Shown here one piece after another: positions 37,675-39,159 of a stretch of DNA of 64,000 nucleotides; position 1 is the first letter of the stretch, and every line of letters begins with the position of its first letter. Origin of the DNA: Minisyncoccota bacterium (lineage in GTDB: Bacteria; Patescibacteriota; Minisyncoccia; Phycocordibacterales; Phycocordibacteraceae); contig JBAZRE010000002.1 in NCBI GenBank assembly GCA_041663025.1, positions 27,703-91,702 on the forward strand. Reading direction: 5' to 3'. A model generated the notes under the pieces. The model was not told where the DNA came from and did not search any database. It saw only the letters and a program-made list of their open reading frames with translations. The translations under genes were made by a program, and so were the position numbers.

Positions 37675-39159
37675 ATGACCATGAACATAGGACGGAACGA
37701 AAAATGCCCATGTGGAAGTGGTTTGAAATATAAAAAATGCCATATGGGAAAAGAACAAGATATGGGTAAAAATACCAAAAGATATCGTCATTTTTCGGGC
37801 GTTGTTTTCGATGGCTCTGGAGCCAATCTTTCGCTCTACGAAAAAAATATGACTTTGGTCGAAGCGATCATCGATATCTTTGGATTTACGGAAGGGCGAG
37901 ATTTAAGTGATATCAAGAGAACAGTCTCTCGCGAGCATGTAGCGGAATTGCATAAATTGGTGGCATGGCTTTGGCCACCTGATACGGACGTGACGAAATT
38001 TCTACCAGCCCCATCCAATAATTTGAGAGCACTCTATATGGGAAATATGCGGCCTCAAACAATTTTGAGAAGTGTCGGGAGATATTCGTTGTACTGCGAC
38101 GAAATACTGGTAATGGATCCTTTCATGAATCCATGGTTCATAGCACCTGACTACAATCCCATAATGCACCCAGAGGAGTACGTCTCTAATACATGGAAAT
38201 GGGTGTTATTTATTATCCAACTTGCACCATGGATATACGATAAACAGGTATTGTTGCTTCCAAACCCTCTCGACTTCGACTCGTCGTTGCGGAAAGAAAT
38301 GTGGGCTAGTGCGGAGAAACGATTAAATCCACAAAAGAACGATTTGCTGAAATTCCTCGAACAAGACGATTCCATGGGAGAAACTGCAAAAGAGGAATTT
38401 AAACGAACATGGATGTCTATTCCTGAATATGCACAACGAAAGAAAATAAAAGAGTTTGACAATAAAATGACGGAAGAAGAGGTCGATGGAATGATTAAGT
38501 ATATAGACAAAATGAAGGAAGAAGATCCTTACTTCGTGACAAATCCAAACGAAAAAGGAGGATTTGGTATCAGCACCCATACAATGGGCGGGAACTTGGA
38601 GCAGGGTTTATATATTTCTCAGCTAACCGGAGCTCATTTATACACAGATTTTGAATTTAGGTGGAGAGAGATTTTATCAGCTCAAACAGATACATCAGAA
38701 AAAAGCCCATGGAGTCCCATTGCGTATGGCTTCCAAAATCTCGATTTCAAATTTTTGGACGGCACAGATTTGAAATTCGTCCATAAAATAAAAGCAGACG
38801 GAAGATTGTCTAATTTGCGGAATTTCCTCCGAAAGACATGGAAAGAAGTATCAGCAGACGAGACACCAAATTATGAGAAGGCAAACAAACTTGCTTTGGA
38901 ATTTGCAGACGAACTGAAGGAACAGTATTCAAAAGCAGAGTCTGAATGGGAAGGTATAGACACAGATTTAACAAAATGGCTCTTGAGTAGAAGTGGGCTC
39001 GGGACCCTCGTTGCTACTGGAGGTGTAAATTGGACGATCCCCGCACTCGGCTTTGCAATGGAAGGCGTAAATCAGCTACTTACAGCACGGCATGAACGAA
39101 AGAATTTCAGGAAAAATGTACCACTTTCGGTCTTTGTTGATTTAAAAAAGAGAAAGTAA
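37675..39159 (+). CDS. SEC-C-motif protein of unknown function (494 aa)
   Basis: N-terminal [13 protein letters not shown] is a SEC-C zinc-binding motif. The rest has no recognised family. AT-rich gene, divergent from the recombinase with overlapping starts. Confidence 0.55.
   Translation: [494 protein letters not shown]

Follow-up and report, generated by a model that had tools for sequence, protein, structure and literature searches.

The gene described here occupies positions 37675 to 39159 (plus strand) of a 64,000-nucleotide stretch of DNA from a Minisyncoccota bacterium (contig JBAZRE010000002.1), called the window below, and encodes a 494-residue protein of the SEC-C family, with a SecA-type zinc knuckle near its N-terminus. 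The corresponding record (NCBI MFA6584945.1) is annotated as a 'SEC-C domain-containing protein' of Candidatus Paceibacterota, and the identical protein is recorded in two independent assemblies. Judging by its relatives, the open reading frame (ORF) is a genuine gene and not a chance ORF, because an indexed search returned 87 full-length homologues, with E-values down to 0, and an exhaustive profile search found 491 representative clusters at E < 1e-30 (843 at E < 1e-10). A preliminary description of the sequence had presented it as an AT-rich ORF with a SEC-C motif, placed between a recombinase gene and a block resembling attachment (att) sites. Both statements hold: the motif is matched by Pfam PF02810, the GC content of 0.408 compares with a window mean of 0.49, which puts the gene in the lowest 3.7% of equal-sized windows, and the coordinates of the recombinase (36020 to 37660, minus strand) and of the att-like block (39255 to 39554) agree with the placement.

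The divergent neighbour is a large serine recombinase with the Pfam domains Resolvase, Recombinase and Zn_ribbon_recom. The start codons of the two genes were at first thought to overlap, and coupled regulation was suggested on this basis. The overlap requires that the recombinase start at the first ATG, at 37711. The start at 37660 is preferred, because the Resolvase match begins at residue 21 of the longer ORF, corresponding to profile position 2, and because an independent gene call yields a 546-residue protein starting at 37660 (MRYFLYARKST...). With this start, the two genes do not overlap, their divergent start codons are separated by 14 nucleotides, and the argument for coupled regulation vanishes. 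The gap (AGGAGTATTATACA) contains, from a reading of the sequence, the AGGAG Shine-Dalgarno element of the SEC-C gene (37661 to 37665, plus strand), located 9 nucleotides upstream of its ATG at 37675.

The zinc knuckle spans residues 7 to 24 (37693 to 37746, plus strand), with C11, C13, C22 and H23 as ligands. The Pfam match (E 5.9e-9, with 36.1 bits where the gathering threshold is 20.4) conforms to the consensus CxC-x8-C-[HC]. The motif was found in 57 of 58 aligned family members, and in the alignment C13 and C22 are invariant and C11 is nearly so. The knuckle of SecA binds SecB, the ribosome and lipid. A profile search of PDB sequences matched only C-terminal peptides of SecA (1ozb, 1sx0, 1tm6 and 9l6b among the entries) and YchJ. 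NCBIfam gave matches at the motif level only, to YchJ-like UPF0225 proteins and to the SEC-C-tagged methionyl aminopeptidase, and the matches in PADLOC-DB v2 were limited to the E2/E1-E2 and PDC-S12 models over residues 4 to 38. The window protein thus has the CxCx8C[HC] knuckle in common with the C-terminal metal-binding domain of SecA and with YchJ and YecA, but carries it at the N-terminus and not at the C-terminus, and lacks SecA ATPase, NTF2-like and UPF0149 domains in the Pfam, NCBIfam and PDB searches.

Apart from the knuckle, nothing in the protein is recognizable, as already pointed out in the preliminary description: the approximately 450 residues beyond the motif have no match in Pfam, NCBIfam, PHROGs or PADLOC. 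When the 58 aligned members were scanned singly against Pfam, no family besides SEC-C was found at a meaningful level. The knuckle is followed by a basic, poorly conserved linker (residues ~25 to 45; 37747 to 37809, plus strand), which is predicted to be disordered (predicted local distance difference test (pLDDT) score below 50 at residues 28 to 42), and by a conserved body (residues ~46 to 438; 37810 to 38988, plus strand). In an AlphaFold2 model, the body contains a small parallel beta-sheet (strands at residues 118-121, 143-147, 192-195 and 321-323) with flanking helices and long helical arms. The C-terminal tail (residues ~439 to 494; 38989 to 39156, plus strand) starts with a region of low pLDDT (below 50 at residues 440 to 459). 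This stretch is rich in Gly and Ala and moderately hydrophobic; after it come two C-terminal helices, one of them basic (RxxRxxFRxxVPLSVFxDL).

The AlphaFold2 prediction for the full-length protein, made with the 58-sequence alignment, reached a pLDDT of 85.4 and a predicted template modelling (pTM) score of 0.81, and the prediction for residues 100 to 345 alone 88.6 and 0.84, respectively. Foldseek comparisons of the full model found no relative in the PDB (best E 0.41, template modelling (TM) score at most 0.13) and no match among the predicted viral structures of BFVD. For residues 100 to 345, several Rossmann-like matches came up (DUF89, cyclodipeptide synthase, OMP decarboxylase and the CARF domain of Can2). 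These were dismissed as noise (E at least 0.18, TM at most 0.28). As modelled, the body is predicted with confidence, yet matches no family or known fold in the searches run.

In the 58-sequence alignment, G123, L139, Y140, P149, P162, T324, W346, F353, L356, R377 and R382 are invariant. Four of them (G123, P149, P162 and T324) are still invariant once fusion proteins with a DUF4238 domain, discussed below, join the alignment. The invariant and near-invariant residues are chiefly structural (Pro, Trp, Gly, Leu and Phe). The conserved polar residues are R118, Y121, R136, Y140, E309, T318, Y323, T324, E332, Q354, R377, R382 and R386. The preliminary description suggested looking for catalytic-looking residues; no invariant acidic residue or histidine in the alignment suggests a catalytic centre.

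The family is large. Its clusters come from bacteria of the Candidate Phyla Radiation (CPR), from Acidobacteria and from Proteobacteria. The typical member is a stand-alone protein of about 480 residues, composed of knuckle and body. About 10 of the 150 best representatives are longer (730 to 875 residues). In the long members that were checked (P0088-P0093, P0156 and P0202), an N-terminal DUF4238 domain (PF14022) precedes the knuckle, which is in turn followed by the body; in P0088-P0092 the match is limited to the body's first two thirds. DUF4238 was absent, according to Pfam, from the window protein and from 58 stand-alone members. The idea that the body is itself a diverged duplicate of DUF4238 was ruled out by an hhalign comparison (probability 0.3%). 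Two further proteins, P0132 and P0113, carry a nucleoside phosphorylase head of the PNP type and no knuckle. Both are matched by the PADLOC models 'PDC-M60C' and, for CBASS (anti-phage signalling based on cyclic oligonucleotides), 'Effector PN-superfamily'; the Pfam model PNP_UDP_1 detects the head in P0132 only (E 2.4e-11). P0212 has a 416-residue head without assignment, and the knuckle is missing in P0257, P0116 and P0269-P0272.

Members of 560 to 597 residues (P0148, P0184, P0198, P0215, P0238 and P0240) have a conserved N-terminal piece of approximately 100 to 140 residues (EWLYPEK…VLLPP…GGEIYVG). The piece is the counterpart of the final part of the DUF4238 region in the full fusions. 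These proteins are probably truncated or decaying DUF4238 fusions. Some proteins that were found along with the family do not belong to it. A 'SEC-C motif-containing protein' encoded on a Bacillus thuringiensis plasmid aligns over residues 4 to 67 only; it is a YkgJ-type cysteine-cluster protein, unrelated beyond the N-terminus. The short SEC-C proteins P0094-P0097 likewise have the motif in common and are unrelated in the remainder.

The fusion form is best exemplified by two proteins annotated only as 'DUF4238 domain-containing protein', namely WP_073971662.1 (793 residues) of Escherichia coli EC93 and WP_045326765.1 of Klebsiella. Residues 347 to 721 of the EC93 protein align with family residues 8 to 390, including the knuckle (hhalign probability 100%, E 1.9e-52). 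Unlike the window protein, the EC93 protein has DUF4238 (PF14022, E 1.5e-13) at its N-terminus. The fusion form is present in 4 of 5,426 complete E. coli genomes. Among the best 30 of 773 plasmid tblastn matches, it occurs on at least 13 plasmid records, from Klebsiella, Sinorhizobium, Vibrio, Aeromonas and others. Phage collections were negative, with no pattern match in IMG/VR and no tblastn match in 50,697 phage records.

The genomic context of the relatives was surveyed in 119 metagenomic loci, identified by a degenerate DNA pattern over W346 to R382; all loci scanned held true family members. Together with annotated contexts there were 123 loci, 89 of them non-redundant and 67 with a flank of 2 kb or more on one or both sides. 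(A contig profile scan with the full alignment reduced the pattern to the SEC-C motif alone and collected 80 unrelated SEC-C proteins, which were not used for context.) All-against-all clustering of neighbours in the 89 non-redundant loci revealed no conserved partner gene, and it therefore appears that the protein acts alone. The serine recombinase is the sole neighbour family that recurs across unrelated loci. It was found within 6 kb in 7 of the 67 loci with sufficient flank, five times as the large and twice as the small type. The large type also occurs in three of eight annotated contexts.

The arrangement of the two genes varies. The large recombinase is divergent at a distance of 14 nucleotides in the window, convergent at 10 nucleotides in L003 and in tandem at 7 nucleotides in L113, and lies approximately 4 kb and 6 kb away in L186 and L160, respectively. 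The near-identical loci L118 and L178 have a small serine recombinase at about 1.3 kb, and L217 has a further large one about 500 nucleotides downstream. Tight adjacency in four lineages (the window, L003, L113 and L217) could be taken to mean that the SEC-C protein assists the recombinase. Those family members that have a recombinase nearby share 41-65% identity, and with such divergence the link between the two genes arose or persisted repeatedly. Their recombinases are more divergent still (24-47% identity). An absence of homologues near recombinases elsewhere, which would have refuted the preliminary description, was not observed outright; the association is real and recurrent, but covers only about one locus in ten. 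A specific functional pairing with the large serine recombinase is not supported, given the low count for the large type (5 of 67 loci within 6 kb, and three of the eight annotated contexts), the variable orientation, and the difference in GC content at third codon positions (GC3; 0.56 for the recombinase and 0.40 for the SEC-C gene). The presence of a recombinase at about 10% of the loci, in all three orientations and with divergent members, fits cargo of small recombinase-borne islands rather than an obligate partner.

The other neighbours are diverse. A Pfam scan of the 147 nearest neighbours identified Resolvase three times and N6_Mtase, Mrr_cat and MerR twice each; the others were singletons, many of them housekeeping genes. 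The annotated contexts are more suggestive. In them, family members are found beside Mrr and Fic, in the company of HigB and ParE toxin-antitoxin pairs, IS91 and integrase fragments, next to a solo Cas1, and, in L217, near NmeDI_C, DUF5677 and the large serine recombinase. In the context of P0116 there is nothing mobile or defensive. Taken together, the data describe an accessory gene that is mobile, stands alone, and frequently, though not invariably, has defence or mobile-element genes around it.

The EC93 fusion gene belongs to L215 (NZ_CP061329.1, 2661787-2669028), an approximately 8-kb island of five genes between rluB and yciO. The genes encode a tyrosine integrase, a weakly DUF5677-like protein, a small serine recombinase, the 793-residue protein with DUF4238, SEC-C and body, and a YagK/YfjJ protein. 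The small recombinase gene is 95 nucleotides upstream of the fusion gene, and a 23-nucleotide inverted repeat pair is found just upstream of the recombinase. DUF4238 fusions are located, like the window gene, in small integrase- or recombinase-bearing islands. DUF5677 is seen near family members in two unrelated contexts, L217 (5034-5894) and L215 (6813-7463, a weak match), and may be another island passenger. In L004 (5876-7939; Roizmanbacteria), a gene for a 687-residue protein with MerR-type helix-turn-helix, DUF7380 and EMARD_N domains diverges from the family gene. The same arrangement is seen throughout the 17 contigs read for this protein, and PLD and PIN/Phd genes are found nearby.

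In the window, the SEC-C gene is part of an apparent island at the 3' end of a tRNA-Gln(UUG) gene (36106 to 36180, plus strand; ARAGORN and Rfam), which coincides with the left, attL-like junction. The island contains two pairs of inverted repeats. The final ~45 codons of the recombinase gene lie in arm a (36176 to 36311), and arm a' (39255 to 39389) begins approximately 100 nucleotides downstream of the SEC-C stop codon. This pair (89 nucleotides at 99% and 23 nucleotides at 100% identity) brackets the recombinase and SEC-C genes. The 168 nucleotides of arm b (39387 to 39554) are 100% identical to the reverse complement of arm b' (45953 to 46120), whose outer end is the attR-like junction. 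The second pair brackets a 6.4-kb segment with genes for NgoPII, Dcm, an OLD/GajA-like nuclease, a winged helix-turn-helix (wHTH) protein, an S49 peptidase, a second wHTH protein and tRNA-Arg.

Alignment of the junctions reveals a common AGC core in J1 (tRNA-Gln / a; 36176-36178, plus strand), J2 (b' / a; 39387-39389, minus strand; formed by arms a' and b) and J3 (b' / TAATTATTT...; 46118-46120, plus strand), with flanks exchanged exactly as in att sites. J1 and J3 resemble a directly oriented pair of attL and attR, and would bound about 9.9 kb at the 3' end of the tRNA-Gln gene. J2 would be an internal, inverted attP-like copy, and corresponds to the 'internal att-like block' of the preliminary description. 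As the three junctions swap their flanks like attL, inverted attP and attR, the island appears to carry within it, in inverted orientation, a copy of its two ends joined together. The repeats are real, because independent assemblies break inside them: the NCBI contig ends at 39509 and a MEGAHIT contig at 39325, and in another sample the 6.4-kb segment forms a separate contig of 6,680 nucleotides, equal to 6398 plus twice 141. The segment between b and b' may be invertible, or its orientation may simply be ambiguous. Inverted repeats like those of the window were not found around L003, L113, L160, L186, L118 or the E. coli EC93 island, and look-ups of empty sites or alternative arrangements via the P0244 and DnaX proteins brought nothing new.

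Directly after the att-like block, a defence cluster (39504 to 43162, plus strand; Pfam) encodes the NgoPII restriction endonuclease, the C5-cytosine methyltransferase and the OLD/GajA-like ATPase-Toprim nuclease, which is matched by the GajA, AriA and Old models of PADLOC with E-values around 1e-40. The GC3 of these genes (0.35-0.39) is close to that of the SEC-C gene (0.40), whereas the value for the recombinase (0.56) is in the range of the host genes (0.55-0.61). The low GC3 that the SEC-C gene shares with the restriction-modification and OLD genes, together with the host-like recombinase, fits cargo that was gained along with the defence genes, or in a similar way, rather than a co-evolved recombinase partner.

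Some further features of the window deserve mention. The recombinase ORF continues after the repeat for about 58 residues, through the tRNA-Gln gene on the opposite strand (36020-36180). The copy of the recombinase 3' end formed by a' and b (39301-39434, plus strand) would stop after 19 residues, ending in ...SFIRATLYDQVRTFFQRAQ. The winged-helix proteins encoded at 43181-43474 and 44822-45331, which flank the S49 peptidase gene, have clearly similar C-terminal halves (NDVEKLARVSNATAERYLDELEKEGKL and NDEVEKLLHVSDSTAERYLSVLVKEGKI). Palindromic repeats of approximately 44 nucleotides (…AAGGTGACNCCTCGCNGCGAGGNGTCNCCTT…) are present at 574-617, 1389-1432, 11830-11873 and 34096-34139, the last copy within the ORF of a dihydrouridine synthase.

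What the SEC-C protein does can be approached by comparison with known systems. Rst_DUF4238 is a single-gene system from a P2 prophage hotspot, a 309-residue protein that consists of DUF4238 only and confers strong resistance to T7 (Rousset et al. 2022, PMC9122126). It is tied to the present family solely via the fusions, in which the N-terminal domain falls into that Pfam family; the window protein lacks DUF4238, and its body, as noted above, is unrelated. The closest experimentally studied analogue, by layout, is Rugutis, a single 359-residue protein encoded on a lactococcal plasmid, Abi (abortive infection)-like, whose N-terminus bears a SEC-C motif and whose fold has no relatives in the PDB (Grafakou et al. 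2024, PMC11381338), and whose trigger is phage c2's large terminase (Mosterd et al. 2025, PMC12184496). The window protein resembles Rugutis in being the product of a single gene, in its N-terminal SEC-C motif and in its confidently predicted fold without PDB relative, but is larger (494 residues); the two were compared by layout only. No Lactococcus record was present among the best 30 of the 773 plasmid tblastn matches. Finally, nucleosidase effectors of the PNP superfamily, known from CBASS and other defence systems, have counterparts in the heads of P0132 and P0113, where they take the place of the knuckle; the window protein has no such head.

On balance we favour, tentatively and at a little less than an even chance, that the SEC-C gene encodes a single-gene anti-phage factor of the abortive-infection type with a sensor body, carried as cargo by the recombinase-bounded island at tRNA-Gln. 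We infer a tether role for the knuckle, a sensor role for the body, membrane activity of the tail, and the defence function as such. In the stand-alone protein, the knuckle would tether the molecule to a partner in the cell, as SecA's own knuckle does. In relatives, interchangeable heads fill the slot in front of the body: a solitary knuckle, DUF4238 together with the knuckle, or a nucleosidase of the PNP type. Modular immune proteins usually combine one constant body with effector-like heads that can be exchanged, and because the family matches this layout, the body may be a sensing or regulatory module. The output could come from the C-terminal tail, which might be membrane-active, or from a docked partner. 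The recombinase would only move the island, and the SEC-C gene would be independent of it.

In favour of defence we count the size and conservation of the family, the sporadic distribution, the foreign GC3, the lack of a conserved partner gene, the DUF4238 and PNP fusions, the anti-T7 protection given by DUF4238 alone, the defence or mobile neighbours in several annotated contexts, and Rugutis as an experimentally validated precedent of like layout. Several points weigh on the other side. No known defence model matches the protein, as the PADLOC matches span only the region of the approximately 20-residue motif. The fusion to DUF4238 is an association and does not mean that the body alone defends, and the parallel with Rugutis is one of layout, not of sequence comparison. 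The alignment contains no invariant Asp/Glu/His constellation of the kind expected for a nuclease or hydrolase that depends on metal. Defence genes are only weakly enriched among the 147 nearest neighbours in the unbiased metagenome sample. The tail is borderline for a transmembrane helix: the Kyte-Doolittle maxima over 19 residues in the last 80 residues range from 1.0 to 1.9 around a mean of 1.4, and 14 of 58 members attain 1.6. A membrane role for the tail is conjecture. Of the earlier suggestion of an accessory or defence factor of the element, the first part is borne out, as the gene is accessory, horizontally acquired, and located in a recombinase-bounded island beside restriction-modification and OLD genes; for the second part, the gene is a candidate only, though a reasonable one in view of the DUF4238 and PNP fusions.

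The strongest competing explanation, which we regard as unlikely although it deserves to be taken seriously, is that the gene is a passenger with an accessory role other than defence, which mobile islands would simply carry along. The protein could be a stress or translation factor, associated with the ribosome, SecB or the membrane and recruited via its knuckle, like YchJ, YecA and the SEC-C-tagged methionine aminopeptidases. This would agree with the SecA-type knuckle as the sole recognizable element, with the motif matches to UPF0225 proteins and methionyl aminopeptidase in NCBIfam, with the many ordinary housekeeping genes among the metagenomic neighbours and with the unremarkable surroundings of P0116. 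It is less easily reconciled with the sporadic distribution and foreign composition of the gene, with the DUF4238 domain and the effector-like PNP head fused to relatives, and with restriction genes directly alongside in three independent contexts.

The defence reading can also be taken further, to a version that we consider rather improbable. Knuckle and body together would then be an undescribed immune sensor, with the knuckle seated on the ribosome, SecB or the membrane, the body recognizing a phage protein in the manner of Rugutis, and the output delivered via the protein's own Gly-rich, membrane-active tail or, in E. coli and Klebsiella, via a fused DUF4238 or PNP head. The family would amount to a widespread single-protein abortive-infection system, ranging from CPR bacteria to enterobacteria.

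It is quite improbable that the gene serves the selfish maintenance of the island or counter-defence, either as a toxin-like addiction factor or as an inhibitor of host or competing-element systems. Its location inside a mobile island, the toxin-antitoxin pairs near family members in two contexts, and a hydrophobic C-terminal tail that could be toxic would be in line with such a role. However, there is no conserved small partner gene that might encode an antitoxin, the family is absent from the IMG/VR pattern search and from the 50,697 phage records, and 494 residues are large for an anti-defence protein. Least probable of all is an accessory factor of the serine recombinase, governing recombination directionality or target choice: it would explain the tight head-to-head arrangement in the window, the status of serine recombinases as the only recurrent neighbour family and the small recombinase upstream of the E. 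coli fusion gene, but is disfavoured because a serine recombinase within 6 kb is missing at about 90% of the loci whose flanks are long enough (and from five of the eight annotated contexts) and because DUF4238 and PNP fusions make no sense for a directionality factor, while orientation and distance vary, the would-be partners are dissimilar and of both large and small types, and the GC3 of the two genes in the window differs sharply.

The body of approximately 450 residues is nameless and lacks both a Pfam model and a relative of solved structure, although the sequence clusters that contain it number at least 491 and extend from CPR bacteria to E. coli. The fusion genes of E. coli EC93 and Klebsiella make the defence idea directly testable in a standard host. 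Should the protein turn out not to be a defence factor, the supposed coupling to the recombinase would still have been removed, and the family defined for annotation. If, on the other hand, it is a defence module, it would bring a new sensor body with exchangeable heads into the bacterial immune repertoire, and provide a first functional lead on the part by which DUF4238 is extended. The scant knowledge of immunity in Patescibacteria, with their tiny genomes, would grow as well.

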